Assembly (NCBI GenBank): GCA_964016885.1 | Contig: OZ024741.1 | Location: 179,924,001-179,988,000, forward strand | From: Eledone cirrhosa | Taxonomy: Eukaryota | DNA length: 64,000 nucleotides | Reading direction: 5' to 3' | Shown: piece after piece, positions 1,928 through 63,419 of the stretch | How the letters are laid out: every line of letters begins with the position of its first letter | Position numbering within the stretch: the first letter of the stretch is position 1 | Made by a program: the position numbers and the translations under genes | Notes under the pieces: model-generated | Databases searched by the model: none | What the model was told of the DNA's origin: nothing | What the model saw: the letters and a program-made list of their open reading frames with translations, nothing else

Positions 1928-3935
1928 ATGATTGTTTCATTTATTGGCCACAAGGGCCGACATACAGAGGACAATACAATAGACAGGGACAGTGAAGGTT
2001 TACATATATAACGTGTAAAAATATAAATAACAATAAGAAAACAAGAAAAATACAAAAATGAGAATTCCCCAATAGGGGGGATAACCACATAGGGTTGACT
2101 CAGCTACCCCACCAATCCTGAACCATCCGACGATTCGAGGGCACCCCTCTCCTCCTCAAACCAGCTTACAGGCGCATGATCAGAGTAGTCCCACTCACAC
2201 AGGCCATTCTCGCCACATTCACCCACCTTTTAGCAAGTGTACTGGTGTGGGGAAGCACTTCGCTCTCCACTCTCACCTTCCTTTCCAGGTGAAACTTGAA
2301 GAAGTTGATGAGGGATTGGCCGAAGAGAAAAGTGTCTGTCTTCATTCCTTTCAACCTGCTCCACCATACAGCCTCTTTCGCTACTGTCACCAGTAAGAGC
2401 CAAAAGAAGGCGGCGGGTCGATCTTCACTATGGACTTGGCCGATAGCCGGATCCGTTCTATACGCGACAACAGCTGTTGTCAGTAATGCACGGACGATGG
2501 ACGAGTGCGTGCAGAACGGTTTCGTCGCCGTGTGCGCATCTCGGGCAGATCCATCTGACAGCACTTCTGTGCCTGTAGAGTTTATCTCGAACCGGAAGTG
2601 CCCCCTCCCCCCGGTAGCACTGCCAAGAGAGCGATTTATGGAAGTTATCCATCGTACCCGACTCGAAGGTTCTCCGGAACAACCACTAATCCTCTATATA
2701 ACTCGCCAACCACTAATCCTCTATATAACTCGGGAGTGGAAGTTCTACTGACCGCATTGCCCGCCTGGTAGAGGGCAGTGAATGCCTGGCAACATTCTTG
2801 ATGCCAGGCACCCAGTCTCGGTCTCTTCTTGACCCAGAACATCTTCTTGACCCAGCACAGCAGCTCAGTCAAAGAGACGAGCTGCGCAAAGGCCCGCCTG
2901 ACAAACGGTGACCACACCTGCTCACCGTTTAGGCAGAATATCTGGAGATGCCGTAGCCTCAGCGCATCATTAGCCACGAAATACTCAGCCCTCTGCGTAG
3001 AGGGTGCTGGTAGCAGATGGACCGTCTCACCAATGGAAACTGTCCTCTCCACAAGAAGTTGAAGAGGAGCCGTTCCAATTTGGCGAGGCGCTAATGGGGT
3101 CAAGGCGCGACGGTCAGGCGGAAGTAGATGACGGACGCGATGTACGCGTTCGCCACCCCGACCCGTTTTTTTCAGGGACAGCTTCCTCTCGGCTCATTTT
3201 TGGGTGGTGGACTTTCCTCTCCAGGTGCCGAGTTGCAAACCCACCGACTTATCCGGGTTAAGTTTCGTTTCCGTCAACCTTTCATATTCTTCCAATAAGG
3301 TGGCGACCACCTCGAATTCAGAGGTGTCCGACACCATCACGGTGATGCCGTGCTCATAAACTGACACAGCCTTTCCGCGTCCCGGTTCAAGTGGGATGCC
3401 CTGCAACACCTCCAGCTTCCGCAACAAAGCCTCGAGAGTCAATACGTACAGAAGTGAGGAGAGAGGGCACCCTTGACGGACCGATCGGGAGATCTGAAAC
3501 GGTTCCGAAAGGTGGCCATTAACTTTGACCACCGAACATATGCCGCTGTGGATTGCAGCGATCCAGCCTCTGATGACGGGACCAAAGCCAGCTGCCTTGA
3601 GGACAGCCTCCAGGTATCGTTGGTCGACCCTATCAAAAGCTTTCGAGGGTAGGGTTTACACACTATCCTCTCTACAATGTATCACATGAGGTGGAGGTTG
3701 TCGTGTATGGACCTGGTCGGGATTGCGCAAGTTTGTGCCTTCCGAACCAAATCCCAGACGACAAACGCCAACTTCTTAGCTCACACCTTGACCAAAATCT
3801 TAAACTCTGTATTGAGCAGAATTATGAACCTGAAATTATCTAATGTGTCCCTCTTATTCCTGTCTTTCCTCATCAGCGTCACTACACCCCGGCTCACAAA
3901 ACTGGGAATACACTCATTCTGCTGCCAGATACAGT
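1864..3935 (-). mobile_element. 5'-truncated, degraded Tx1/L1-clade non-LTR retrotransposon with (TAG)n tail
   Basis: Fragmented minus-strand ORFs (RSVRQGCPLSSLLYVL; ALRLRHLQ; CPRC...ETVLHALVH) homologous to the 6859-9256 ORF. 3' UTR has aataaa followed by (tag)n at 1864-1927. Confidence 0.9.
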
Positions 3936-3960
3936 AGAACACTTCGAATAGATCGGAGAA

Positions 3961-6840: not shown

Positions 6841-9582
6841 CGATCCACTATCCGGTCTTTGCGAGACCAGGATGGACGGGTGATCCTTGAACCTAAGCAG
6901 ATGTGCGAGGCTTTTCAAAAGCACTTTGCCGGATTGTTCGGAAGGGGCGGGGAGCCGGTTGGGGATGTGGACTTCGGTCCATACCTCGACGGCCTGCCGC
7001 GTCTCTCGGACAGGGAGGCGAAGTCCTGCGAAGAGCCGATTTCAGCCGCTGAGATAGAGGACGTGCTGAGCCAATGCGGCAAACGCAAATCCCCGGGTCT
7101 CGATGGTCTTCCATACAAACTATATCTAGCTATGCCGGACTTGTTCCCCGATCTCCTCGAGGCGGTCTACTGCAACTGGCAACAGAACGGGAGAATTCCC
7201 TGTGCTGTGACCAAGGGCGTAGTCACGCTAGTGAGGAAGGACGAGAACAAGGGGGACGATATAAATAATTTCAGGCCCATAACTCTGCTAAATACAGAGT
7301 TACAGATTTTGGCCAAGGTGCTAGCAAAGAGGTTGGCGCTTGTCGTGGGTAACTTAGTGGGAGATGCGCAGACATTTGCTATCCCGTCCAGGTCCATCCA
7401 CAACAACCTCCACCTCATGCGATACATCATAGAGAGGGTTGGGAACGAACCCGGCTTTGGTGGGGCCCTGATCAACTTGGATCAATCTAAGGCATTCGAT
7501 AGGGTCGACCATGGTTACCTGGATGCGGTGCTAGCGGCGGCAGGCTTCGGACCCGTTTTCAGGGGCTGGATCAATGCCATGCACAGCAGCCGCATCTGCT
7601 CTAGGGTCAAGGTGAACGGCTACCTCTCGGAGCCGTTCGAAATCGCGCGGTCCATCCGACAGGGGTTCCCTCTCTCCTCCCTTCTGTATGTAATGACTCT
7701 AGAGCAACTGCTGCGGAAGTTGGAGTTCTTGCAGGGCATCCCGTTGGAACCGGGATTGCGGAAAGCGGTGTCAGCCTACACCGATGACGTAACAGTAATG
7801 GTGTCGACGGCCTCGGAAATCGGGGCGATCGGCACCTTACTGGAGGAGTACGAAAGGTTTACAGGGGCTAAGCTGAACCGGGACAAGTCGATCGGTCTGC
7901 AACTCGGCACGTGGAGGGGCAGATCTGTGCCCTCCGATGGCGTCGTCGGGCGCTGGACGGAGGGCCCGGTGAAGTTGCTCGGGGTCTGGTTCGGACCAGA
8001 CCTCCAGGTGGAGAAGAACTGGGGTGAGGTAACGAACAGGGTGTTTGCACTGACCCAGAAGTGGGTCGAGTGCAAACTGTCCCTGAAAGGTCGGGCGGAG
8101 GTGACGAACACTTATATAGCGTCCGTCATCTACTACCGCCTGACCGTCGTGCCTTGCCCAAGGGAAACGCTCGCCAAAATGGAGCGCGCACTCTTCCAAT
8201 TCCTTTGGAAGAAGCGGGCTCCTATGGTGAGGAGATCCATCTGCTGTCAACACCCTTCGAAAGGCGGGCTGGGGATGCCGTGGCTAATGATACGTAAACA
8301 CGCATTAAGGCTACGGCACCTTCAGGTATTCCTATCGGGTCAACCGGTGTGGGCCCCGTTTGTGAGGCGAGCCTTTCACAGACTCGTCTCACTCACCGAG
8401 CTGCAATCCTGGATCAAGCAAAGACCGAGAAAACTGGGCGCCTGGCACACCGAGTGTGCCCAGGCGCTCACGGCTCTCTGGCAGGCGGACCCGGCTGTAA
8501 GTGGAGAATCCACCTCGTCATTCTATAGAGGGCTGGTGGTTAGCAGGTGCGACGACACCCTCGGAGAAGCCCTAGGCATGGAGGAAGACGAACTGGCCAA
8601 CCTGTTCGGTAGGACATTCAGCCCGGGACCTAATGGGTAACTTCCAGAGGTTCCTGGCCTGGCAATGCTACAGAAGGGCTCTGCCCGTTCGAGAAAGGCT
8701 CTACAGACACGAGCGCCCGGGTAGGGACCCCTCGAAAAAGATCTGTCCGAGATGCGTGTGCGACGAGGAAACCGTTTCACACGCATTGGTACACTGCTCG
8801 GACATTGCCGATCTGTGGGGCTATGTCGAACAACTGCTGTCAAGGGTGGGACCGATCCGGTTGACCACCCAGTCTATTGTAACGATCAAGCCGCCTCCCC
8901 TCTTCAAAAACGAAGAAGAGGCGGTGTTTCTGTGCGTAATAGCCATGGCGAAAGAGGTTGTATGGTGGACGCGTCTGAAAGGACTGAGGTCAGACATCTT
9001 TCTCTCTGGCCAACAACTGGTCCGTTTCTTCCGATATCATTTCGGAAGAAGGATCAGGATGGAGAGAGATGTGCTGCACCCCAGCCGTTTTTATGAAAGT
9101 GGCGAGAATGGCCCGTGTGAATGGGCCTTCACTCTACATCAGACTATAGGTGAGGAAGATGAAAGACCAAGGAAGCACCCCTTCTCTTGCACACTTTTTT
9201 TCGGGGGTGTGTGCGACCCCCAAGGCGCCTCCTCTCTATTGAGGATTTTGTTATAAATTTTATTCTGTTATATTTTATTTTATTTTTATATTTTGTTATT
9301 GCCTCCTCCTTATTGAGGACGCCTTGTTTTGTAAACTCCCCCCATTGTACTTGTCCCACTTTTGATGCCCTGGTGGCAAATAAAAGAAACATATCTATCT
9401 ATCTATCTTTTGTTATAAATTTTATTTTTTGTTATATCTTATTTTATTTTTATATTTTGTTATTGCCTCCTCCTTATTGAGGACGCCTTTTTGTGTAAAC
9501 TCCCCCCTTTGTACTTGTCCCACTTTTGATGCCCTAGTGGCAAATAAAAGAAACATATCTATCTATCTATCTATCTATCTAT
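6841..9582 (+). mobile_element. 5'-truncated Tx1/L1-clade non-LTR retrotransposon inserted in (TCTA)n
   Basis: RT ORF, 3' UTR with aataaa, (tcta)n on both flanks (6755-6840 and 9558-9582). The 3' UTR is tandemly duplicated. Confidence 0.92.
6859..9256 (+). pseudogene. ORF2 reverse transcriptase plus C-terminal zinc knuckle; endonuclease missing; frameshift near 8635
   Basis: Motifs KSPGLDG, FRPITLLN, LDQSKAFDRV, RQGFPLS, AYTDD, KLLGVWF, GGLG; downstream frame has CPRC...EETVSHALVHC. Confidence 0.92.
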
Positions 9583-9604
9583 GTCTATTATATATATATA
9601 TATA

Positions 9605-11614
9605 AATATAGACATAGAATATTCGAAAATATTCTGTATGTTTATAATAAACATTTTGAAGACCTAATCGCTATAGAATAGAATACGTCACGTATTACAA
9701 TTAGATTCTCGATAAAAGCAAGGGAAGTAATCTACGCGTTTCATTCTTGTTAGAAATCTTCAGGACTACATATCCAGTGCTTTTATCGAGAATGACACAG
9801 CTAGAGACTTATAGAATACTTAGCTGTGTACAGGAACTGGTTTGAAAGAGCGGTTGCCGGTCCGGCAGAAATTAGAAATTGGAATAAATGCTCTGAAATA
9901 GCGATATATATGTGAATATAGACATAGAATATTCGAAAATATTCTGTATGTTTATAATAAACATTTTGAAGACCTAATCGCTATAGAATAGAATACGTCA
10001 CGTATTACAATTAGATTCTCGATAAAAGCAAGGGAAGTAATCTACGCGTTTCATTCTTGTTAGAAATCTTCAGGACTACATATCCAGTGCTTTTATCGAG
10101 AATGACACAGCTAGAGACTTATAGAATACTTAGCTGTGTACAGGAACTGGTTTGAAAGAGCGGTTGCCGGTCCGGCAGAAATTAGAAATTGGAATAAATG
10201 CTCTGAAATAGCGATATATATGTGAATATAGACATAGAATATTCGAAAATATTCTGTATGTTTATAATAAACATTTTGAAGACCTAATCGCTATAGAATA
10301 GAATACGTCACGTATTACAATTAGATTCTCGATAAAAGCAAGGGAAGTAATCTACGCGTTTCATTCTTGTTAGAAATCTTCAGGACTACATATCCAGTGC
10401 TTTTATCGAAAATGACACAGCTAGAGACTTAAGTATTCTATAAGTCTCTAGCTGTGTCATTCTCGATAAAAGCACTGGATATGTAGTCCTGAAGATTTCT
10501 AACAAGAATGAAACGCGTAGATTACTTCCCTTGCTTTTATCGAGAATCTAATTGTAATACGTGACGTATTCTATTCTATAGCGATTAGGTCTTCAAAATG
10601 TTTATTATAAACATACAGAATATTTTCGAATATTCTATGTCTATATTCACATATATATCGCTATTTCAGAGCATTTATTCCAATTTCTAATTTCTGCCGG
10701 ACCGGCAACCGCTCTTTCAAACCAGTTCCTGTACACAGCTAAGTATTCTATAAGTCTCTAGCTGTGTCATTCTCGATAAAAGCACTGGATATGTAGTCCT
10801 GAAGATTTCTAACAAGAATGAAACGCGTAGATTACTTCCCTTGCTTTTATCGAGAATCTAATTGTAATACGTGACGTATTCTATTCTATAGCGATTAGGT
10901 CTTCAAAATGTTTATTATAAACATACAGAATATTTTCGAATATTCTATGTCTATATTCACATATATATCGCTATTTCAGAGCATTTATTCCAATTTCTAA
11001 TTTCTGCCGGACCGGCAACCGCTCTTTCAAACCAGTTCCTGTACACAGCTAAGTATTCTATAAGTCTCTAGCTGTGTCATTCTCGATAAAAGCACTGGAT
11101 ATGTAGTCCTGAAGATTTCTAACAAGAATGAAACGCGTAGATTACTTCCCTTGCTTTTATCGAGAATCTAATTGTAATACGTGACGTATTCTATTCTATA
11201 GCGATTAGGTCTTCAAAATGTTTATTATAAACATACAGAATATTTTCGAATATTCTATGTCTATATTCACATATATATCGCTATTTCAGAGCATTTATTC
11301 CAATTTCTAATTTCTGCCGGACCGGCAACCGCTCTTTCAAACCAGTTCCTGTACACAGCTAAGTATTCTATAAGTCTCTAGCTGTGTCATTCTCGATAAA
11401 AGCACTGGATATGTAGTCCTGAAGATTTCTAACAAGAATGAAACGCGTAGATTACTTCCCTTGCTTTTATCGAGAATCTAATTGTAATACGTGACGTATT
11501 CTATTCTATAGCGATTAGGTCTTCAAAATGTTTATTATAAACATACAGAATATTTTCGAATATTCTATGTCTATATTCACATATATATCGCTATTTCAGA
11601 GCATTTATTCCAAT
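9605..11614. mobile_element. head-to-head tandem array of a 310-nt hammerhead-containing monomer (retrozyme/Penelope pLTR-like)
   Basis: Period 310 (9607, 9917, 10227). Orientation flips at 10430/10431, then about 3.8 inverted copies follow. Copies are essentially identical and the array is flanked by (TA)n. Confidence 0.93.
10483..10525 (+). ncRNA. minimal type I hammerhead ribozyme (copies at 10793, 11103, 11413 on +; 9727-9769, 10037-10079, 10347-10389 on -)
   Basis: gtagtc-CTGAAGA-t-ttct-aaca-agaa-t-GAAA-cgc-GTA-gattac. Helix I gtagtc/gattac, helix II ttct/agaa, palindromic ACGCGT helix III, enclosed by a perfect 16-bp stem (10459-10474/10532-10547). Confidence 0.85.
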
Positions 11615-26637: not shown

Positions 26638-27420
26638 TATATTAATTCAAAATATTAACAAAATAGATATTCTTGTTATCAATTATATTTTATTATACAT
26701 ATTTCAGAGATAAGTTCAACAGTACGTCCTCATCAGATAAAATAAGATGATGCATGACATACCCTGACATAGTAGATGGCTAAGATTCAGTCATGGTAGT
26801 GATTAACATATGACAAAACTCAATATTTATACCCTAATATTGAGAACATGAGAACAATATATAATACAAACAATAGAGAGGGTGCGTGTAATACAGCTTA
26901 AAAAATACATGGCATCAATATAACAGTTAAACATTTTTTTTAAACTACTGTTTTTTTCGAGGCACCTACTAAATATATGATCACATCAGCTGTTTCTTCC
27001 TCTATGCTTTCCTTTCTTTCCTCTTTCTTCAGAAGTTAAAAAAAAAAAATTTTAACTGTTATATTGATGCCATGTATTTTTTAAGCTCTATTACACGCAC
27101 CCTCTCTATTGTTTGTATTATATATTTTTCTCATGTTCTCAATATTAGGGTATAAATATTGACTAAATCTTAACCATCTACTATGTCAGGGTATGTCATG
27201 CATCATCTTATTTTATCTGATGAGGACGTACTGTTGAACTTAACTCAGTACCTCTGAAATATGTATAATAAAATATAATTTATCACAAGAATATCTATTT
27301 TGTTAATATTTTGAATTAATATTAATAATTCTGGAAAACATTTTTTGTTGAGTGCTTCCAACCTATTGTAAAACTCTCATTCTTTGATGTATTCATTGAA
27401 CCTTGTTTAACTTTTAAATA
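26638..27420. mobile_element. fold-back Penelope pLTR-like element with ~290-bp arms
   Basis: 26638-26935 is inverted at about 27050-27325; flanked by (TA)n. Confidence 0.8.
27209..27275 (+). ncRNA. type I hammerhead ribozyme (partly deleted inverted copy at 26686-26744)
   Basis: tattttat-CTGATGA-ggacgtactg...cagtacctct-GAAA-tatgt-ATA-ataaaata, with an 8-bp helix I. Confidence 0.8.
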
Positions 27421-28730: not shown

Positions 28731-29688
28731 CATTCACACTTTCATTACTATATTTCCATGAAAGACACTGCCTGTGATTTTCGAATGGTTTGGAAGTAAT
28801 CAAGAATTTGGAGAGATTTAGTAATATAAATAACTTTCTCATGTTCAAAACACCAGCTTAATAAAGCTGGTGTTTAGAACATGGCTTAACAAAGGATAGG
28901 GATTTTAGATGAATAAAAACACTTTAAAATGAACTGATCAGTATCGTAAAACCATGAGTGGTTCAAGCGGATCAGTATCATCCTATGAAAAATGTTCGAG
29001 CAGTTAATGTAACCTTTGTTAAAACATCAACTTTACGTTTGTTTTTTACCCACCCTACTGTCTTCATTCCCTTTTGATATATTTCTAGTCATATCGAATA
29101 AAACTGTTCCTATTCTATGTTTGTAAATGTTAAATCCAACAGCAACGATGATAGATGAGAAATACTCAGCAAATATATATTATTAAAAAAAATATAGTTA
29201 CTTTCATTCATTCATATATATCTATCTATCTATCTATATATAAATGCAAGTTTACGATTCTGTGTGTCCGCCTAAAACTAGCAAACTACCGGACCAAACT
29301 CCTCAAAATTACATATACATATTCACTATGCACTGGGACAGGTAACGGTCGAAAGAGTTTTACTTTCCAAAGCAAGGAATTAATTTAAATTCAATTTATC
29401 TTATTTTCTAATGAATATCAAAAGAGATAATCCATTTTGTTTTTTTATGTTCTCCTGTCTGTAGATAAGAGAGTGGGGGATGGGAGAGAGAAAGAGAGTG
29501 GGAGATGGGAGAGAGAGTAAGGGGATGAGAGAGAAAGAGAGAGAGAATGAGTGGATGGGAGAGAGAGAGTAAGGGGATGCGAGAGAGAAAGAAAGAGAGT
29601 GTGGGAGATGGGAGAGAGAGAGAGTAAGGGATGTGAGAGAGAAAGAAAGAGAGTAAGGGGTGAGAGAGAAAGAGAGAGAGTGGGAGAT

Positions 29689-30829: not shown

Positions 30830-33800
30830 AAGGTCATCTTCAGAGGCTAGGAGAAAGAAAACACAGCGATCTGAAGAAAGTGAAGAAGTTCGGCATGCCC
30901 GTCTAGCTGCTAACAGAGCCCAAACAGCTTTAGCATGAGCACACCGTTTGGATGAAAAGGAACAAAGGACTGCTGCTACACGAGAACAACAAATTAAGGA
31001 ACAGCAACAAATCAGACGAAATGCTAATCAAGCACATCGTTCTACTGCCCGAGCAGGAAGACAAGCCACAAGTAAAATAAACTGGCTGATGGGTGCTTTT
31101 TCGTATGACCCCCAAAAGGACTACAGCAGTAATCCACAAATCAACATTGGGAAAATGAACAAATGCTACCAGTATTGTGGTGTCAAGAAGCGGGCAGCAG
31201 AAACACCAAGTATATGCTGCTCAAAAGGCAAAGTGAGCCTTAAAACAATACAAGAACCTTCTGAATTTCTGAAGAATCTGCTCCTTCAGAATACACCAGA
31301 AGCACGACACTTCAATAAATACATCATAAAATATAATTCTGCTTTTCAAATGACATCTTTTGGGGCTGACAGGAATGTGACTGACTTTAGATTCTGTACA
31401 ATTTATAAAATTCAGGGACAGTGTTACGACTTAATGGGTGGCCTTCTGCCACTTTCACAGGAGCCTCACAAATTTGTGCACGTTTACTTCATGGGTGGAA
31501 ATAAAACACAGGCACAACAAAGATGTACCAATGTCCATGGTGGATTGCAGTTCTACATAGTCATAAAGTTACAAGAAATGCTTCACCAACATCACATGTA
31601 TGTCAGTGTATTTAAATATGCACTGGAGCATATGAACAACACCAGAGATCGTAAAATCACCATTAGGGCAGACAAACGCCCAGCTTCAGAACATGAATGC
31701 AGATTCAATGCACCTGTCACTGATGAAGTTGCAATCATAATGGTTGATGAACAACATGAACGACGCGACATTGTTTTGCAAAAACGAAGTGGACATTTGG
31801 AGCGAATTTGTGAAACTCATAGAGCGTATGATTCACTCCAATATCTGCTCATCTTTTGGAATGGTCAAGATGGATATCATTTTCAGCTACGGCAGATCAA
31901 CCCAGGAACGGGACAAGAAACTGCCGATCAATCAGCTGCAAATAATTCTATGCTTTCATGGTACATGATCACTTCAACCAAGTTCTGCGATTCAAAGAAG
32001 TAACCAGCCAGTTCATGGTGGACATGTATGCCAAAATTGAAACAGAAAGATTGGGTTTTCTGCGAAGGAATCAAACTAAGTTGAGGGCAGATAACTACAT
32101 CCACCTTAGAGATGCTATCAATTCTGATGTTGACCCAAGAAATATTGGCCAGCCAGTCATACTACCATCAAGCTTCACGGAAGGACCACGTTACATGCAT
32201 GAACGTACGCAAGATGCAATGGCCTATGTCAGAAAATTTGGTCGGCCAGATCTCTTCATTACATTTACATGCAATTCAAACTGGTCAGAAATATCAAATG
32301 AATTATTTCAAAATCAAAAACCAAAGGATCGACATGACCTCATTGCTCGGGTTTCCCATGAAAAGCAAATAAAACTCATCTGGCTCCTAAAAGAAGGAAG
32401 AATCTTTGGTGGGCTTAGTGCTTGGATGACCACTATTGAGTGGCAGACCGGAGGTCTTCCTCACTCTCACACACTAATCTGGTGCAAGGAGAAGATAAGA
32501 CCAGATGATGTTGATAAGATCATTTCAGCAGAGTTGCCTGATAAAGGTACTGATCCAGAGCTCTTTAAAACCATCAAGTCCAAACTCATTCATGGTCCAT
32601 GTGGAGTCATCAATCCAGCCTATCTCTGCATGAAAGATAAAAAATGCAGCAAACATTATACTAAAGCTTTTATTCGGGAAACTCGGACTGACAATAATGG
32701 ATACCCACTTTATCGTAGGCGTAGACCAGAACATGGAGGCAATACTGCAAGCCTAACAGTTCGAGGAGAGGAGCTGACCATAAACAATCAGTGGGTCGTC
32801 CCACACAACAAATTGTTGTGTAAACTTTTAAATGCTCATATCATATGTTGAGTATTGCAGCTCCGTCAAGGCCGTCCTATATGTCACAAAATATATCAAC
32901 AAGGGCAGTGACATGGCTACCTTTATTAATGACAAAGAACTCAATGATGGTGGGCTGGATGGGGTCAAACGGTATCAAACAGGTCGATACATCTCCAGCA
33001 ATGAAGCTATCTGGCAAATCTTTGGATTTGATATCCACCAATGCCACCCAACAGTGGTCAACCTCGCAGTCCATCTGAAAAATGGACAGAAAGTGTACTT
33101 CACTGAGATCACTGCTCATCAGTTGGCACAAGAATCACATGACACTACACTAACTGCTTTCTTTAAACTCTGCCAGAATGATGAATTTGCTCGATCTCTC
33201 CTATATGCTGAAGTCCCAACATACTACACCTGGACCAATTGCAAGACCTGGAATCGAAGAAAGCAGGGTCATTTAGTGGAAGGTCATGAAGTCAAGTCAA
33301 GTGATGCTATTGGGCGTGTTTACAATGTCCATCCCAACAACAGAGAATGTTTTTATTTACGGCTACTTCTGCATACTGTTCGAGGACCAACGTCATTTGA
33401 GGATCTTAGGTGCTTCAGAGGAAGGAAGTGCGCAACATACCAAGAAGCATGTAAACAGCATGGACTCCTGCATGACAATGGACACTGGAAGAAGTGCCTA
33501 AAAGAAGCAGCAATCACTGGAAGAAGTGCCTAAAAGAAGCAGCAATTATTTGCTATTATGCTCACAGCATGTGGATTTGATGAAGCTCATTTACTATGGC
33601 AGGAGTACAAAAACAATATGTCGGGCGACTATCTAGACCTAGCCCGAAGACATCATGGCAATATGTATATGAAATATACCCCCAGGATTTACAATCAAGC
33701 TCTCTGTGACCTGTTCCATCGAGTTCAGGCAATGAATAGCACATTAGCTAACTGCTGGATGCCAGAGCCAGATGAAGAAATGGAGGTAGCACAAGACATT

Positions 33801-35190
33801 TTTCAGGAGACAAACTACGATATTCAAGCATTGCGTAAGTTCGTGGATGAAAATGAACCTCGATTAATGGATGACCAGAAATACGCCTACCACATCAGCG
33901 AAAACATTCAAAATGACAGGGGAGGACTTTTCTTCATCGATGCTCCTGCTGGCACAGGCAAGACATTCCTCATAAACCTCCTGCTTGCAAAAGTTCGCCA
34001 AAAGCAACATATTGTCCTTACTGTGGCTTCAAGTGGCATTGCAGCAACACTTCTGGATGGAGGAAGAACTGCACACTCCATGTTTAAGCTGCCATTAGAT
34101 CTCACACGGCATGAACAATCTGTTTGCAACATCAAGAAGAACTCACTCAAGGGCAAGCTTCTGCAAACATGCAAGATGATAATTTGAGATGAAGCTACTA
34201 TGAGCCATAAAGGAGCAATTGAAACTTTGGACCGGACGATAAGGGATCTGAGAGAAAATAGTTGATAATGGGAGGAGTGACTATGGTTCTTGCTGGTGAT
34301 TTCCGACAAACTCTGCTTGTAATTCTTCGAGGGACTCGAGCTGATCAGGTCAATGCCTGTCTGAAAACATCCTATCTCTGGCCCCACTTTCATCTGCTGA
34401 GCCTTACAACCAACATGCGAATGCACTTAACTGGTGATGAAGGTGTCAGTGAGTTTGCCATCCAACTACTTAAATTTGGAAATGGACTTCTTGAAAAGGA
34501 CTCCAATGGCCATATTCAGTTGTCATTTGACACAGAACAAGAACTGATTGCCAAAATGTTTCCAAACATTCAGACCAGGCAATATGATCCGAAATGGCTC
34601 TGTGAAAGAGCAATCTTAGCACCTAAAAATGTTGCTGTGAAAGAAATCAACAGAAGGCTGCTGGAGATGTTACCGGGAGAGAAAATATGCTACAAATCAG
34701 TTGACACAATCACTTCTCAAGGTTGTAAACTATCCAACTGAATTTTTTAACAATCTTGAACAAGCGGGAATTCCTCCACACAACGTGATACTGAAGCTAG
34801 GAGCTTCGGTTATGCTACTTCGCAATCTGGATCCTCCAAAACTTTGTAATGGCACAAGACTCATCATCAAAAATATGATGTCCAATGTTCTAGAAGTTGC
34901 AATCATGTCAAGAAAATTTGCTGGTGACATTCCCAGAATACCTCTGAAGCCAACTGATTTGCCATTTGAATTTCAAAGACTTCAATTTCCGATCAGGCTC
35001 AGTTTTGCCATGACCATTAATAAATCTCAAGGGCAATCATTGAAAGTCGTTGGGTTGAATCTGGCATATCCTGTCTTTTCACATGGTCAACTCTATGTTG
35101 GCACAACAAGGGTTGGGAACCCTGATTGTCTCTTCATTGTGGCACCACAGGGAAAACATCAAGAATGTTGTTTATCCAGAGACTTTGGAA
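30830..35190 (+). pseudogene. Helitron Rep (HUH-Y2) / PIF1-like helicase, with frameshifts and stops
   Basis: Motifs DLFITFT, EWQTGGLPHSH, YVTKY, DAPAGTGKT, GDFRQ, LCNGTRL, FAMTINKSQGQ, HGQLYV spread across six or seven frames. Confidence 0.95.
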
Positions 35191-36104
35191 TGAACAATGT
35201 CGTAATTCCTCATTCAATGACAATACACACAGATCCTAATTACTTAGTCATGTAATTTGCAAGGAATTCTGAAGCCGCAAATTTACTGCATGGTTTTACT
35301 TTGGAAGAATATGCAGGCATTCCCGGGTACCTCTGCTATATAAAGTAGTATAAGTGATGACTTTGTTGGGTAGAAATAGCAACCAAATTTCCTTCAAATC
35401 CCACCTTACTTTCTCAGGTATGTATATATGTATGAAGCAAAAAGGAATGGTTCTATAAGATAACTCGATCTATTAGAAATATTAGCAAATCACAAATAAC
35501 TGTCTTACACACATACATGTGTGTGTATGTATCTATGTATGTCATGTGAGCCACTATAACTGTTGGTATAGCTAATAAAAATAGAAAACAAATCTCCCTC
35601 AAACAAGATCCTACTGCCATAGAGGCAAAGATTGGTGAAAGTTACAGTGTACAAACTTGAATACACTTTCCCCGAATTACAGAAATGAGTAAGTAAATGC
35701 TTCATTCAATCATAAACCAATGCTAAATTTATTTCCTTATTTTATTTATGGTTTTTAAAATAGTCTTTACATGTTTGAATTTCAGAGGTTCAGATTGAGC
35801 AAAAAAAAAAAAAAAAAGAAAGAAAAGGATAAATAAAAAAAATCTAAATGTATTTTTTTGGTCATGCCCTTTTCACTGACAACATACCTAATGATTCATC
35901 TATGAGTAAAGCATTATATATGGTGACTGTAATGGGGAGCAGTATTCAAAAAATCACCACTGGAAAAAACTTATATTTTTATCTAGATGATTTACTTTGA
36001 CCAAACGGCAATAAATATTCTGCTATAATTCCTACTTTGGTTAAAATCATATTTGAATGGTCAAATATTTTGTAATGTGTGCCAAATATATATATATATA
36101 TATA

Positions 36105-37075
36105 TATTAAGTGTAATTAATTCTTTTACAATGGAATTAGCTCAAAAGGAAATATTCCTGAGCCGTGTATAAAAGTAATATATATGAGTAATATATATGA
36201 TGAAACAGATACCAACACATCTGTATTTATATTGCAAAAGAAAGTTAGCCAGAATGAAGAATATTAATTATTTTACCACAGTTCGTCCACATCGATTTAA
36301 AATAATAAATCGACAAAAACTAGCTGCGCTGCCAAATGGCTATGATGTTTATACATATTTAAACTTCAAAGTCAAACCTGTTCAGTAGATAAGTTTAAAC
36401 CTCAAAATCCAAACATGTTTCGAGATGAATATAAGTGTAGGAATATCATGCCACTGCTCTCCTCAGTAAACATCCAGAGACAATTGATAAGCTTCACTTC
36501 TAAATAATTTAAAAGACTGTGTGACGCACATGGGTTCACAGATTCAAGCTAGTCTCATAACCGTACTGCTAGAAATAACAGTCGTATATATGAGGCGAAT
36601 TTCAGCTCGACGAAGAGCAGTTATATTAAGTGTAATTAATTCTTTTACAATGGAATTAGCTCAAAAGGAAATATTTCTGAGCCGTGTATAAAAGTAATAT
36701 ATATGAGTAATATATATGATGAAACAGATACCAACACATCTGTATTTATATTGCAAAAGAAAGTTAGCCAGAATGAAGAATATTAATTATTTTACCACAG
36801 TTCGTCCACATCGATTTAAAATAATAAATCGACAAAAACTAGCTGCGCTGCCAGGAGAGCAGTGGCATGATATTCCTACACTTATATTCATCTCGAAACA
36901 TGTTTGGATTTTGAGGTTTAAACTTATCTACTGAACAGGTTTGACTTTGAAGTTTAAATATGTATAAACATCATAGCCATTTGGCAGCGCAGCTAGTTTT
37001 TGTCGATTTATTATTTTAAATCGATGTGGACGAACTGTGGTAAAATAATTAATATTCTTCATTCTGGCTAACTTT

Positions 37076-37078
<3 letters not shown>
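36105..37078. mobile_element. 519-nt HHR monomer: partial tandem plus inverted segment, flanked by (TA)n
   Basis: gtgtaattaattcttttacaatgg at 36111 and 36630. From about 36853 the sequence is the reverse complement of about 36240-36462. Confidence 0.88.
36408..36470 (-). ncRNA. minimal type I hammerhead ribozyme
   Basis: Minus strand reads ttta-CTGAGGA-gag...ctc-GAAA-cat-GTT-tgga. Palindromic AACATGTT; helix I is weak (G-U rich). Confidence 0.65.
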
Positions 37079-37110
<32 letters not shown>

Positions 37111-38157: not shown

Positions 38158-38467
38158 TTGCATTCGTAAGGCGAAGAACTTGCTGGAAAGACTATTTGCT
38201 TGTTAATTATACTGACACTTCATGTTAGGGCTTAACCTTCATTCAAAATCTGTTACATTTCAACAAAAGTATTTATGCTTCTAAACTTATGCCTCAAATA
38301 TTTACATCCAAACTGTTGTTTCTGCCCTATTGTGCTTCATTAGTGCGAACTAACTGTACATATAGTGAATTTAATAATTCACTATATGTACAGGCACTAG
38401 TGCTTCTCGGCACTGCACAGAGCAGACGCACTATGGGCTATGTATTTTCGTCTTCTGCTAGACAGAA

Positions 38468-39610: not shown

Positions 39611-39872
39611 GGTATATATATAATATATATATATATATATGATATATATATACACATATGATATATATCATATATCACATATATATATATTATATATCAT
39701 ATATATAAGTATATATATATTCATATATATATACATATATATGTAAAAGTTCTATTTAAATTGTTGGGATACAACAAGCAAATATTTTTATAACTGATAT
39801 AAAGCACTCAACAAATATTTGGAGTAAAAATACGATATTAACAAATGGAAACTATATTTATAAAACCATATT

Positions 39873-39937
39873 TATTTCATTATACATATTTCAAGGACAC
39901 CAAGTTAAATTATGGTGTGCTTTCATCAGACAAAATA
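39873..39937 (-). ncRNA. hammerhead ribozyme in the Penelope pLTR (inverted copy at 43217-43281, +)
   Basis: tattttgt-CTGATGA-aagcacacca-taatttaact-tggtgtcctt-GAAA-tatgt-ATA-atgaaata. Confidence 0.85.
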
Positions 39938-40103
39938 TAATATAGATCAGTTTTATAAATAAATATTGACATACCCTTAAAAATGCAACCATTACTGTTG
40001 GAAGCTCCAGGATTGTGGAGTTGTTTAATTATATTATTATTAGTATTGGATATTTTTATTTTTAAAATAAGCCGTTGGGTTACAGAAAAAGAAAAAAGAT
40101 AAA

Positions 40104-40207
<104 letters not shown>

Positions 40208-41499
40208 AAAACAACAGAAAGAGGAAGATATATATAGAGAGAGAGGAGACAGAAAGAAGGGGAGAGAACGAAAACTCTAAGTCATATCTTGAGGAGTTAA
40301 CTTAACAATTGAGATGAAATGAATAAATAAAATTAGAAATGTTAATGATCATGAATGGAATATACATATATAATATGAGAAATTAACCATTGTTTAAATA
40401 TGATTAGATGTTTAGTTAATCATTTAAAAATTGAGATCAATATATTAAAAATTGGGATCTATACATTAAGAAATCCATATATTACTAGAGAACTACATAT
40501 CATATAACACGTATACACACGCAAAAATACATATAAATATATATACACACTTATAAAATACATAACATATCTAACTACGTATACAATATATACACACAAA
40601 GCATAAAGGATTCTTTAATTTAATTTAAGATATAGGAATCTTAAAAATGTTATAAGTGTTAAGATATTAAAGGAAATTTTATGTTATACACACTTTATGT
40701 TATTAAACAAAATTTTTTTTATATAAGTTTTATAAGATTACCTGTTATGTATTTATGGCTGTTATTATATGTCTATCTGTCACGAATCTTGGGATAATCA
40801 CTATACATAAGTGCAATGAAATTGTATGGATATACACACACACGCATATACACAATTCTCACATATACATATATATACATGTGTGTGTACCCTCAGCCAA
40901 TAGGTAGATACGCATCACGCATACATATACATACAGACAGACATACATTCATAAAAACATATGTACATGTATGTCAATACACACATATACATATATACTC
41001 ACATATAGAGAGAAGTATATATAAATACAGTACATAGTATAATTGAGTACATAAAATACAAAAGAATTATATTACAATTTGGAAATATAATTATAAGCAA
41101 TATAACTTTAAAAGCAATACAATTTTAAAATATTATAGAATATTTTAAGTTATAATTTCAAAATAATAGTACGTTTAATAGATTTAGTATAAAAATTCAT
41201 CTTACGTATATTTAACTCAAAATTTTGAAAGGATAAACTTTCGAAAATAGGAGAAGCTATCAGAACAATAAAAAAACAATAAAAAATAAGAAATAGGAAA
41301 TATTTTCTCCTTTCAAGAGCTCTCAATATATTTCTCTAGAATAGTTTATTATATTTATATTATTTATATTTAGGAAGAAAAGTTATTTTTACTTGAGTGT
41401 ATAATCAGTCAAAAAAGATAAAGGAATCTAATGATTTATCGACAGGTTCAATATATTAATAAAATTAATTAATTAATTATATACTACATTTTAAATTTA

Positions 41500-55939: not shown

Positions 55940-58900
55940 ATAAGATGGTGGGTACTCTGGGGAAGAGTGTGTTTCGATGGTGTGTACAGTGGGGGAAGAG
56001 TGTGTTAAGATGGTGTGTACAGTGGGGGAGGTGTGTGTTAAAATGATGCGTACAGTGGGGGAGGAGTGTGTTAAAATGGTGTGTTCTGTGGAGAAGGAGT
56101 CTGTTAAGATGGTGTGTACAGTGGAGGAGGAGTGTGTTAAGATGGTGTGTACACTAGGGGAGGTGTGTGTTAAGATGGTGTGTACAGTGGAGGAGGAGTG
56201 TGTTAAGATGGTGTGTACATTGGGGGAGGAGTGTGTTAAGATGGTGTGTACGGTGGAGGGGGAGTGTGTTAGGACGGTGTGTACAGTGGGGTAGGAGTGT
56301 GTTAAGATGGTGTGTACAGAGGGGGAGGAGTGTGTTAAGATGTTGTGTACAATGGTGGAGGTGTGGGTAAATATGGTGTGTACAACGGGGGAGGAGTGTG
56401 TTAAGATGGTGTGTACAATGGGGGAGGAGTGTGTTAAGATTGTGTGTACAGTGGGGGAGGTGTGTGTTAAGATGGTGTGTACTCTGGGGAGGAGTGTGTT
56501 AAGATGGTGTGTACTCTGGGGAGGAGTGTGTTAAGATGGTGTGTACGGTGGAGGAGGTGTGTGTTAAGATGGTGTGTACAGTGGGGGAGGTGTGTGTTAA
56601 GATGGTGTGTACACTGGGGGAGCTGTGTGTTAAGATGGTGTGTACAGTGGAGGAGGAGTGTGTTAAGATGGTGTGTACAGTGGGGGAGGAGTGTGTTAAG
56701 ATGGTGTGTACAGTGGTGGAAGAGTGTGTTAAGATGGTGTGTACTCTGGTGGAGGAGTGTGTTAAGATGGTGTGTACAGTGGGGGAGGTGTGTACAGTGG
56801 GGGAGCTGTGTGTTAAGATGGTGTGTACAGTGGGGGAGGAGTGTGTTAAGATGTTGTGTACAGTGGAGGAGGAGTGTGTTAAGATGGTGTGTACAGTGGT
56901 GGAAGAGTGTGTTAAGATGGTGTGTACTCTGGGGGAGGAGTGTGTTAAGATGGTGTGTACAGTGGGGGAGGTGTGTACAGTGGGGGAGGTGTGTTAAGAT
57001 GGTGTGTACAGTGGGGGAGGAGTGTGTTAAGATGTTGTGTACAGTGGAGGAGGAGTGTGTTAAGATGGTGTGTACGGTGGAGGGGGAGTGTGTTAAGACG
57101 GTGTGTACAGTGGGGGAGGAGTGTGTTAAGATGGTGTGTACAATGGGGGAGGAGTCTGTTAAGATGGTGTGTACAACGGGGGAGGAGTGTGTTAAGATGG
57201 TGTGTACGGTGGGGGAGGTGTGTGTTAAGATGGTGTGTACAGTGGGGGAGGTGTGTGTTAAGATGGTGTGTACTCTGGGGAGGAGTGTGTTAAGATGGTG
57301 TGTACAGTGGGGAGGAGTGTGTTAAGATGGTGTTTACGGTGGAGGGGAGTGTGTTAAGACGGTGTGTACAGTGGAGGAGGTGTGGGTAAAGATGGTGTGT
57401 ACAGTGGGGGAGGTGTGTGTTAAGATGGTGTGTACGGTGGAGGGGGAGTGTGTTAAGACGGTGTATACAGTGGGGGAGGAGTGTGTTAAGATGGTGTGTA
57501 CAACGGGGGAGGAGTGTGTTAAGATGGTGTGTACAACGGGGGAGGAGTGTGTTAAGATGGTGTGTACAGTGGGGGAGGTGTGTGTTAAGATGGTGTGTAC
57601 TCTGGGGAGGAGTGTGTTAAGATGGTGTGTACAGTGGGGAGGAGTGTGTTAAGATGGTGTGTACGGGGGGGGGGAGTGTGTTAAGATGGTGTGTACAGTG
57701 GGGGAGGTGTGTGTTAAGATGGTGTGTACGGTGGAGGGGGAGTGTGTTAAGATGGTGTGTACAGTGGAGGAGGTGTGGGTAACGATGGTGTGTACAACGG
57801 GGCAGGAGTGTGTTAAGATGGTGTGTACAACGGGGGAGGAGTGTTAAGATGGTGTGTACAACGGGGGAGGAGTGTGTTAAGGTGGTGTGTACAGTGGGGG
57901 AGGTGTGTGTTAAGATGGTGTGTACTCTGGGGGGGAGTGTGTTAAGATGGTGTGTACGGTGGGGGAGGTGTGTGTTAAGATGGTGTGTACAGTGGGGGAG
58001 GTGTGTGTTAAGATGGTGTGTACTCTGGGGAGGAGTGTGTTAAGATGGTGTGTACAGTGGAGGAGGAGTGTGCTAAGATGGTGTGTACGGTGGGGAGGAG
58101 TGTGTTAAGATGGTGTGTACAGTGGGGGAGGTGTGTGTTAAGATGGTGTGTACTCTGGGGAGGAGTGTGTTAAGATGGTGTGTACAGTGGAGGAGGAGTG
58201 TGCTAAGATGGTGTGTACAGTGGGGGAGGAGTGTGTTAAGATGGTGTGTATTCTGGGGAGGAGTGTGTTAAGATGGTGTGTACAATGGGGGAGGTGTGTG
58301 TTAAGATGGTGTGTACTCTGGGGCGGAGTGTGTTAAGATGGTGTGTACAGTGGAGGAGGAGTGTGTTAAGATGGTGTGTACAGTGGAGGAGGAGTGTGCT
58401 AAGATGGTGTGTACAGAGGGGGAGGTGTGTGTTAAGATGGTGTGTACTCTGGGGAGGAGTGTGTTAAGATGGTGTGTACAGAGGGGGAGGAGTGTGTTAA
58501 GATGGTGTGTACAGTGGGGGAGGTGTGTGTTAAGATGGTGTGTACTCTGGGGAGGAGTGTGTTAAGATGGTGTGTACTCTGTGGAGGAGTGTGTTAAGAT
58601 GGTGTGTACAGTGGGGGAGGTGTGTGTTAAGATGGTGTGTACACTGGGGGAGGTGTGTGTTAAGATGGTGTGTACAGTGGAGGAGGAATGTGTTAAGATG
58701 GTGTGTACAGTGGGGGAGGAGTGTGTTAAGATGGTGTGTACAGTGGAGGAGGAGTGTGTTAAGATGGTGTGTACGGTGGAGTGGGAGTGTGTTAAGACGG
58801 TGTGTACAGTGGGGGAGGAGTGTGTTAAGATGTTGTGTACAATGGGGGAGGAGTGTGTTAAGATGGTGTGTACAATGGGGGAGGAGTGTGTTAAGATGGT

Positions 58901-60250
58901 GTGTACAGTGGGGGAGGAGTGTGTTAAGATGGTGTGTACAGTGGGGGAGGAGTGTGTTAAGATGGTGTGTACTCTGGGGGAGGAGTGTGTTAAGATGGTG
59001 TGTACAGTGGGGGAGGAGTGTGTTAAGATGGTGTGTACAGTGGGGGAGGTGTGTGTTAAGATGGTGTGTACAGTCGAGGAGGAGTCTGTTAAGATGGTGT
59101 GTACAGTGGGGGAGGTGTGTGTTAAGATGGTGTGTACGGTGGAGGGGCTGTGTGTTAATATGGTGTGTACTCTGGGGAGGAGTGTGTTAAGAGGTGTGTA
59201 ATCCGGGGAGGAGTGTGTTAAGATGGTGTGTACAGTGGGCGAGGAGTGTGTTAAGATGGTGTGTACAGTGGGGGAGGTGTGTGTTAAGATGGTGTGTACT
59301 CTGGGGAGGAGTGTGTTGAGATGGTGTGTACAGTGGGGAAGGTGTGTGTTAAGATGGTGTGTACAGTGGAGGAAGAGTGTGCTAAGATGGTGTGTAACCT
59401 GGGGAGGAGTGTGTTAAGATGGTGTGTACAGTGGAGGAGGTGTGTGTTAAGATGGTGTGTACTCTGGAGAGGAGTGTGTTAAGATGGTGTGTACAGTGGA
59501 GGAGGTGTGTGTTAAGATGGTGTGTACTCTGGGGAGGAGTGTGTTAAGATGGTGTGTACTCTGGGGGAGGAGTGTGTTAAGATGGTGTGTACAGTGGGGG
59601 AGGAGTGTGTTAAGATGGTGTGTACAGTGGGGGAGGAGTGTGTTAAGATGGTGTGTACTCTGGGGGAGGAGTGTGTTAAGATGGTGTGTACAGTGGGGGA
59701 GGAGTGTGTTAAGATGGTGTGTACAGTGGGGGAGGTGTGTGTTAAGATGGTGTGTACAGTCGAGGAGGAGTCTGTTAAGATGGTGTGTACAGTGGGGGAG
59801 GTGTGTGTTAAGATGGTGTGTACGGTGGAGGGGCTGTGTGTTAATATGGTGTGTACTCTGGGGAGGAGTGTGTTAAGAGGTGTGTAATCCGGGGAGGAGT
59901 GTGTTAAGATGGTGTGTACAGTGGGCGAGGAGTGTGTTAAGATGGTGTGTACAGTGGGGGAGGAGTGTGTTAAGATGGTGTGTACAGTCGAGGAGGAGTG
60001 TGTTAAGATGGGGTGTACAGTGGGGGAGGAGTGTGTTTAGATGGGGTGTACAGTGAGTGATGATTGTCGTATGGTGGTGTTCAGGTAGTGTGGGATGTGT
60101 TAATTTTTGTGTACATTGGGTCAAGTGTGTGTTAAGATGGTGTGTATACTGGGGAGTAATGTGTTAAGATGGTGTGTGTGTGTGGTGAATGAGGTGTGTG
60201 TTAAGATAGAGTTGAATATATGTGAGGACTATGTTAAGATGGTGTGTAAA
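55940..60250. repeat. 33-bp satellite array (~4.3 kb)
   Basis: Consensus gtgtgttaagatggtgtgtacagtgggggagga with 32-bp variants; degenerate at the edges. Confidence 0.97.

Positions 60251-62786: not shown

Positions 62787-63419
<633 letters not shown>

Follow-up and report, generated by a model that had tools for sequence, protein, structure and literature searches.

A 64-kb window of the Eledone cirrhosa genome (64,000 nucleotides of contig OZ024741.1, assembly GCA_964016885.1) contains a 310-bp tandem unit that reverses its orientation within the array, and the question raised by this locus is how its two arms came to be joined. The first-pass annotation of the window had read the flip, together with twelve others, as part of the integration mechanism, a view supported by the present analysis, and had attributed it to a self-primed or template-switching cDNA, a view that is weighed below against the priming of two cDNAs from the two ends of one target.

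The focal array, its hammerhead motifs and a neighbouring Penelope-like element

The focal array consists of two head-to-head arms of 838 and 1185 bp (Table 1), in which 9594-10431 pairs with 10441-11278 over 838 bp with three mismatches, two of them at the outer TA edge. The arms are identical to each other at 826 of 827 positions; alignment to the 310-bp unit shows a right arm free of mismatches as far as 11614 and a left arm with a single internal one (10410) before its outer edge. The orientation flip at 10430-10441 was thus confirmed, with 2 nt of TA microhomology between the arms, and its loop, previously given as 11 nt, is of 9 nt (10432-10440), one extra A-T pair closing it; 11 nt is the offset between the 5' ends of the two arms. 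One arm is nested in the other, and the left arm halts at the short site of its family, one unit inside the long arm. According to the predicted fold of the 310-bp unit, the flip is located in the loop of its natural hairpin. A location at the hammerhead ribozyme (HHR) cleavage site was ruled out, the junction lying 78-89 nt upstream of it. On its own, the geometry of the focal junction is compatible with fold-back as well, and cannot decide between the two readings. Two non-LTR RT fragments in opposite orientation (2182-3960 and 7000-9572, approximately 70% identical) precede the array, the second ending in a 164-bp duplication and a TATC run that adjoins the focal insertion.

A pattern scan identified 15 HHR sites in the window, compared with none in any of 20 Markov controls. 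Every full 310-bp unit carries one, with a 6-bp helix I and a short helix III with a CGCG cap, so that the focal array contains seven at 310-bp spacing, all of them pattern calls. A relaxed scan of the window yielded no further loci, and Rfam gave no match in the window at the gathering score. At E values of up to 10, the 150 matches listed of 249 were mostly hairpin or microsatellite look-alikes of miRNA models, rejected as chance, and no hammerhead family was among them. The unit has a GC content of 34%, its longest stop-free stretch is of 59 amino acids, and the monomer fold was computed at -72.5 kcal/mol, a figure without shuffle control. The array therefore shows the features that define non-LTR retrozymes, namely one type I HHR per tandem unit of 150-450 bp, a GC content below 45% and a non-coding nature. 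It resembles the metazoan representatives described in PMC7229834 and 10.64898/2026.07.22.740005 in its low-GC tandem unit of about 300 bp, its HHR per copy, its lack of coding capacity and its high self-pairing. A solo HHR pattern with a palindromic helix III occurs at 25315-25375, tied to neither a tandem nor an inverted arm.

The same window harbours a Penelope-like element (PLE) with HHR-bearing pLTRs inserted in (TA)n, the inverted 5' pLTR of which is identical to the 3' pLTR at 208 of 212 positions of unique sequence. Its coding remnant (41581-42864, minus strand) was recovered by tblastn with an Argonauta protein (P0004, residues 278-738; E 7e-58) across three frameshifts, and shows over 42858-41581 a PLE-type RT followed by a C-terminal endonuclease region of the GIY-YIG type. 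The best named homologues are from Argonauta and Octopus. The CxCX5C linker, CxxC and CxH motifs are all visible in the frame translations, and the N-terminal RWK and DKT motifs, present in the Argonauta relative, were lost in the window copy through 5' truncation. Pfam assigned no family to the two ORF pieces or to two of three intact relatives, and to the third only a DUF (E=0.09), so that the clade call is based on homologues and motifs. On these, the element would match the Hydra clade of endonuclease-bearing PLEs, characterized by the same three motifs, HHRs and (TA)n targets (PMC8557442). The Penelope link drawn in the first-pass annotation is thereby backed by this Hydra-clade remnant and its inverted pLTR. 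A described member of the clade, Hydra-1_Obim from Octopus bimaculoides, is annotated as having 'no pLTR' (PMC8557442); the window copy, compared with it by description only, lacks its 5' part, carries frameshifts and has both a direct and an inverted pLTR that are clearly recognisable. An Asn-rich stretch of the ORF (42027-42300), also found in cephalopod relatives, resembles the N-rich inserts of rotifer Penelope elements (PMC3846280).

BLAST found no match between the 310-bp unit and the Hydra-type pLTR at 39742-43322, the sole pLTR in the window, and the kinship of the unit to a PLE pLTR is structural only (TA target, tail and inversion). The 310-bp array probably represents a non-autonomous retrozyme that moves in trans, presumably through a Penelope-like protein.

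Inverted insertions across the window

Fifteen two-armed insertions were identified in the window, all of them head-to-head (Table 1). Eleven of the twelve other flips listed previously proved to be true inverted-arm junctions; ten are local (15802, 16348, 17030, 18230, 22102, 23830, 26935, 36853, 48865 and 62900), and the eleventh, at 42861, is the inverted pLTR, whose partner lies 2.5 kb away. The twelfth, at 24010-24045, is an inversion, but with adjacent, non-overlapping arms, and is thus not a self-inversion. The junctions at 13018 and 48341 were absent from the earlier list. With microsatellites masked and arms required to lie within 200 nt, perfect arms of at least 16 bp were found at 22 loci, compared with none in any of 20 Markov resamples; 13 of these loci are junctions, six represent one unit-internal hairpin of the array repeated, and three are unrelated hairpins. 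The hairpins at 1387-1587, 22283-22505, 28840-28883 and 38354-38393, without paired family ends, were left out of the fifteen. The first two are short elements with terminal inverted repeats, probably remnants of MITE-like DNA transposons. TA-flanked partial tandems of about 1.5 units and without inversion at 17196-18097 and 18597-19026 are single-arm counterparts of the two-armed insertions.

Table 1. Positions in the window of the focal array, the Penelope-like element and the two-armed insertions.
Feature	Positions	Strand	Description
Focal left arm	9594..10431	-	2.7 copies of 310-bp unit; HHR-sense leftward; outer end is the family short end (unit position 218-229) in (TA)n
Focal right arm	10430..11614	+	3.8 copies of 310-bp unit; outer end is the tailed end (unit position 255) in (TA)n
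TA microhomology	10430..10431		2 nt, common to both focal arms
Unpaired loop	10432..10440	+	9 nt, part of right arm
Focal tail	11578..11614	+	~37 nt, right end only
Type I HHR motif	10483..10525	+	Helix III capped by palindromic CGCG; pattern scan
Other focal HHR motifs	10793, 11103, 11413	+	Pattern scan
Other focal HHR motifs	9727, 10037, 10347	-	Pattern scan
Two-armed insertion	12903..13040		Junction 13018; loop 0; 95-nt tail on left; not classed as nested or staggered
Family B	15568..15942		Junction 15802; right arm from HHR core to short end; left arm with 107-nt tail; staggered
Chimera	16119..16782		Family C (-) and family D (+) joined by 30-bp snap-back at 16348; separate (TA)n at either outer end
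Two-armed insertion	16940..17180		Junction 17030; left arm with 5' extra (HHR stem I) and short end; right arm with 62-nt tail; staggered
Family A'	18139..18382		Junction 18230; left arm with ~17 nt 5' extra and short end; right arm with 32-nt tail; staggered
Two-armed insertion	21966..22166		Junction 22102 at HHR 5' boundary; loop 3; 72-nt tail on left; not classed as nested or staggered
Family E	23736..23903		Junction 23830; right arm with ~34 nt 5' extra and short end; left arm with 77-nt tail; staggered
Family F	23918..24218		Junction 24010; left arm limited to the tail; right arm covers the adjacent upstream part to short end; staggered, non-overlapping
Family F relative	26641..27417		Junction 26935-27050; arms 266/311 identical; HHR in both; 95-nt tail on right; probably nested
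Family D, 519-bp unit	36108..37079		Junction 36853; 1-nt microhomology; arms 746 and 227 nt; ambiguous
Penelope-like element, putative Hydra clade	39742..42864	-	5'-truncated, frameshifted; RT YRDD, CxCX5C linker, CxxC, CxH
3' pLTR of this element	HHR at 39873-39937		88-nt tail
Inverted 5' pLTR	42864..43322	+	Ends at short end in (TA)n; nested
Family E	48318..48517		Junction 48341; right arm with 5' extra and 79-nt tail; nested
Family B	48725..48909		Junction 48865; ~7-nt microhomology; right arm with 5' extra and short end; left arm with 111-nt tail; staggered
Family A'	62788..63311		Junction 62930 (= 62900); left arm with ~27 nt 5' extra and tail; right arm 1.3 units, short end; staggered in either register

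The two-armed structure is found at six of the seven strictly called HHR loci and at 12 of 14 HHR or HHR-family loci, compared with none of 12 other TE copies and not in one minisatellite (Fisher p about 1e-5). The greater frequency of inversions in HHR families than in other repeats, on which the first-pass annotation had staked its reading, therefore held within the window (12/14 vs 0/12). The Helitron and RT labels of the control repeats were taken from Pfam, and the SINE, L1-like, RTE and CRE-like labels are ones we presume; three control rows concern a 72% inverted match of two L1-like fragments 3.2 kb apart, counted as independent copies. Two decayed Helitron Rep/Pif1-helicase regions (30939-35255 and 51685-55086; Pfam Helitron_like_N and Pif1_2B_dom) and a 33-bp minisatellite with about 129 copies and a very strong G skew (55941-60177) are also present. 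Template switching during replication of pre-existing satellite DNA, by fork stalling or inverted amplification and apart from retrotransposition, would agree with the position of the focal flip in the loop of the unit's natural hairpin. We nevertheless consider it extremely unlikely, since flanking host DNA is not duplicated, the ends are element-specific and none of the 13 control repeats, a 4.2-kb minisatellite among them, is affected.

The outer ends of the arms, hand-placed from alignments, lie within 12 nt of (TA)4+ in 28 of 30 cases, compared with 2.5% of background positions; the exceptions are 15568 (29 nt away, via a GA run) and 24218 (none), and the (TA)n flanks would hide any target-site duplication. 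The end points of the two arms differ in every one of the 15 insertions. All ten two-armed insertions of families A/A' (three), B (two), E (two) and F (three) combine a short end on one arm with a tailed end on the other (nominal p=0.001; ~0.016 on the six loci that did not define the sites), with tails of 32-38 nt in A/A', 107-111 in B, 77-79 in E and 87-95 in F; single-copy families have tails of 62, 72 and 95 nt. At all seven loci measured, 18-175 nt separate the HHR cut from the short end downstream of it. The HHR core was looked for and not found in families E and I, so that their orientation was set by end geometry. The family-A short end is a real priming site, at which a longer arm (63311) and the single-arm copy 18597-19037 also terminate; the halt of the focal left arm at this position thus fits independent priming. 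Family D has three ends, all different, 16782 being ~30 nt short of 37079.

The strong TA targeting and the chimera of families C and D would also be expected if two independent insertions had entered the same TA tract in opposite orientation and their arms had been homogenised later by gene conversion, as would the arms that differ by indels (26935) or at 9 of 114 positions (62900). This explanation is very improbable: the arms are not separated by a TA tract (the filler at 24010 is AT-rich and nothing more), every one of the 15 insertions is head-to-head, their 5' ends are usually no more than tens of nt apart, and a short end is invariably paired with a tailed one.

Arm geometry and the joining of the cDNAs

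If a single target-primed cDNA had folded back on itself, the arm that owns the loop must contain the other arm entirely. Seven of the 15 insertions are staggered, each arm having sequence absent from the other (15802, 17030, 18230, 23830, 24010, 48865 and 62900), and one (16348) is a chimera in which family C, the snap-back and family D lie between two TA tracts; these eight are not obtainable by fold-back of one target-primed cDNA. Four insertions are nested (10431, 42861, 48341 and, probably, 26935), one is ambiguous (36853, nested only if the loop is of 390 nt) and two were not classed (13018 and 22102). The clearest staggered cases are 23830, for which the reference is 95-98% identical, and 24010; the owner of the loop was assigned from HHR structure at 15802 and 17030, and from a diverged reference at 18230. 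The simplest form of the earlier reading, a snap-back of a single target-primed cDNA whose copy is then linked to the second end of the target, accounts for the nested junctions, the near-identical arms and the local stems at 23830 (12 bp with a 6-nt loop) and 16348 (30 bp). As a general route it is contradicted by the eight insertions with private sequence in each arm, and it is improbable on two further counts: it predicts arbitrary stops, yet copies end at the recurrent short site, and the inferred 3' end of the focal cDNA has no stable fold (MFE 0). A short snap-back of the kind proposed earlier can be seen at 23830 and 16348, where it would bridge the two cDNA ends; as a general mechanism, fold-back is not supported.

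All three features expected of twin priming were found, namely head-to-head arms, outer ends at priming sites and microhomology at the join, which amounts to 1-2 nt at 10431, 16348 and 36853 and ~7 nt at 48865; fillers occur at 18230, 24010 and 48341. The insertion at 24010 has the geometry of L1-type twin priming with an AT-rich duplicated filler. At 18230, 23830, 48341, 42861 and 36853 the arms are 99-100% alike within the locus, compared with 81-93% between loci, and such locus-specific variants common to both arms point to one template. Family B arms, 100% identical within and between loci over 28 nt, are uninformative on this point, and those at 62900 are only 90% alike. Seven of 14 arm pairs are identical, and the near-identity of the focal arms adds to the suspicion of fold-back chimeras made in the library or the assembly; such an artefact is barely credible, as the other seven pairs differ, the ends are family-specific, unique flanks are present on both sides and the structure is documented for Penelope (PMC8557442, PMC3846280).

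Two regularities of the arms were noted besides. The family E copies 23813-23905 and 48315-48438 have only two differences in 124 bp, both in a 27-bp duplex and mirrored in the arms, which reflects a shared template or arm-to-arm conversion. The arms at 36108-37079 are offset by exactly 129 nt at both ends in the 519-bp unit (746 = 519 + 227 vs 227 nt), either by chance or by equal-length synthesis followed by loss of one unit; equal arm lengths, as in lock-step synthesis, occur only at 36853 modulo one unit, and were rejected as a general rule.

We give somewhat better than even odds to programmed twin priming, a scheme in which cDNA synthesis begins from both ends of the cut target, at two start sites on the RNA, and the products are united by microhomology. 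A TA tract would be cleaved on both strands by a Penelope-like protein, and either free end would serve as primer for a separate cDNA copied from the RNA that bears the ribozyme. One cDNA would begin at the short site and the other 32-111 nt further 3', the difference being the tail; both sites would be fixed, and the pairing of strand with site is presumed. The distal cDNA would halt at the proximal site, as at 24010, or pass beyond it, perhaps through strand displacement or because the template is multimeric or circular; such passage would yield overlapping, near-identical arms. The two cDNA 3' ends would finally join, by a route that we infer, via 1-7 nt of microhomology, the homology being created in some cases by a short snap-back (23830 and 16348). 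The geometry, ends, microhomology, HHR motifs and Hydra-type ORF are observed in the window; two-strand cutting with extension and two RT start sites would be transferred from the literature on a different clade, and the mechanism as a whole is deduced from the assembly sequence of one 64-kb window. In that clade, the PAc Penelope protein, modelled as a dimer, cuts DNA on both strands and extends each of them, with a preference for AT-rich targets; its RT begins at two internal positions that bound the tail downstream of the HHR, whose cleavage is dispensable (PMC11167929). The two strands are alike in start site in bulk assays of PAc (PMC11167929), which, if it applies here, would count against twin priming at two sites. 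Internal duplications arise in L1 twin priming, likewise head-to-head, when the distal cDNA passes the second primer (10.1101/2024.08.27.596794).

Three further points count against twin priming: small loops and near-identical arms are what self-priming predicts, the ends of family D do not recur, and at the focal locus a fold-back copy could have been caught by the TA run that the unit itself carries at its short end. The strongest rival is a self-primed hairpin, in which antisense RNA or free cDNA folds back and is copied to a palindrome, one arm of which is trimmed by the endonuclease at the short site before both ends integrate. Such self-priming has been proposed for the head-to-head palindromic junctions of Penelope (PMC3846280), and the tail has been attributed to endonuclease-mediated resolution (PMC8557442). 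It accounts for the small loops, for the identical arms and, if cutting sets the ends, for the staggered ends. Six arm 5' ends lie 0-10 nt from the HHR core (15802, 17032/17034, 22104/22105 and 36853), an observation that also favours it; at the 5' boundary of the ribozyme, the transcript may begin or RT may stop. The hairpin model leaves unexplained the non-overlapping arms at 24010, the chimera at 16348 and the single-arm copies that end at the short site; the short end of the focal array lies one unit within the long arm, and target-primed RT proceeds in vitro on both strands from the tail boundaries (PMC11167929). We therefore hold it to be unlikely, though a serious contender. Three family A' 5' ends (18248, 18599 and 62930) are situated about 15-20 nt downstream of the point at which a degenerate HHR would be cut (close to 18897 in the reference copy), as they would be on a template of cleaved RNA; the focal arms extend through uncut HHR motifs.

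Relation to known systems and significance

The insertions share with PLEs that bear an inverted 5' pLTR (PMC8557442; PMC3846280) the head-to-head 5'-truncated copy, the palindromic junction, the tail at one end, partial tandems, (TA)n or AT-rich targets and, in the pLTR, the HHR. They differ in that most have no ORF and in their tails, of 32-111 nt compared with the 30-40 bp described (PMC8557442; PMC3846280). Head-to-head arrays or paired ends are not described in the main texts of the retrozyme papers PMC7229834 and 10.64898/2026.07.22.740005, where 'inverted' appears only in a reference title. LINE-1 twin priming likewise uses two target ends that prime one RNA and joins the cDNA ends head-to-head by microcomplementarity, but there the second primer anneals at a chance site, and overlaps, seen in 17% of cases, have a median of 22 bp (10.1101/2024.08.27.596794); the window insertions have family-fixed sites, no poly(A) and overlaps of up to 838 bp. 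In synthesis-dependent MMEJ (PMC5728401, PMC2943611), limited synthesis at secondary structures makes new microhomology, as at 23830, 16348 and 24010, although the ends joined in the window are cDNA ends.

Head-to-head palindromic junctions, one-sided tails, TA targeting and the self-priming hypothesis are already known; the end geometry, with its paired short and tailed ends and its stagger, is new. The origin of the tandem and inverted structures of PLEs is stated to be unresolved in PMC8557442, and the only explicit model found was self-priming on antisense RNA (PMC3846280). Self-priming, inferred in the first-pass annotation, is a published hypothesis and not an established mechanism, and the Penelope texts consulted contained no demonstration of the RT template switching that the annotation had presented as established. 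The literature searched yielded no paper that applies twin priming to PLEs or describes inverted retrozyme arrays; older Penelope papers may hold the idea. The staggered geometry argues against the published self-priming reading.

Long double-stranded RNA, which might be edited and might mask the ribozyme, had also been suggested. The HHR-sense strands point away from the focal junction, so that a dsRNA hairpin would need read-through from outside; the predicted read-through transcript of the focal arms folds as one long duplex. The fourth right-arm HHR (11413-11455) lies beyond the 838-bp duplex, and masking would therefore be partial. Cephalopods are a lineage with heavy A-to-I editing. The 24 substitutions between arms (five A/G, six C/T) are not clustered, a pattern uninformative on editing because editing acts on RNA. 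An antisense pLTR promoter, as suggested in PMC3846280, would be an alternative source of a hairpin transcript, and most non-coding editing sites of cephalopods overlap repeats (PMC9068888).

The focal inversion is a real feature of a known class, and the end-pairing rule challenges its self-priming explanation. Tests of end pairing and stagger separate the models from sequence alone, and an in vitro system exists (PMC11167929). The anatomy of the insertions ties non-coding retrozyme arrays to the Penelope machinery independently of sequence similarity, and, given 15 such events within 64 kb, a large share of the genome's inverted repeats could originate in this way. A possible generalisation, put forward tentatively, is that twin priming is obligate and programmed in PLEs and their retrozyme parasites, a dimeric RT-endonuclease acting on palindromic (TA)n and using two fixed sites on one RNA, with the distal cDNA displacing the proximal one. 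If true, it would replace the self-priming model by one rule for inverted pLTRs, one-sided tails and long palindromes, and these elements would keep supplying the genome with hairpins.
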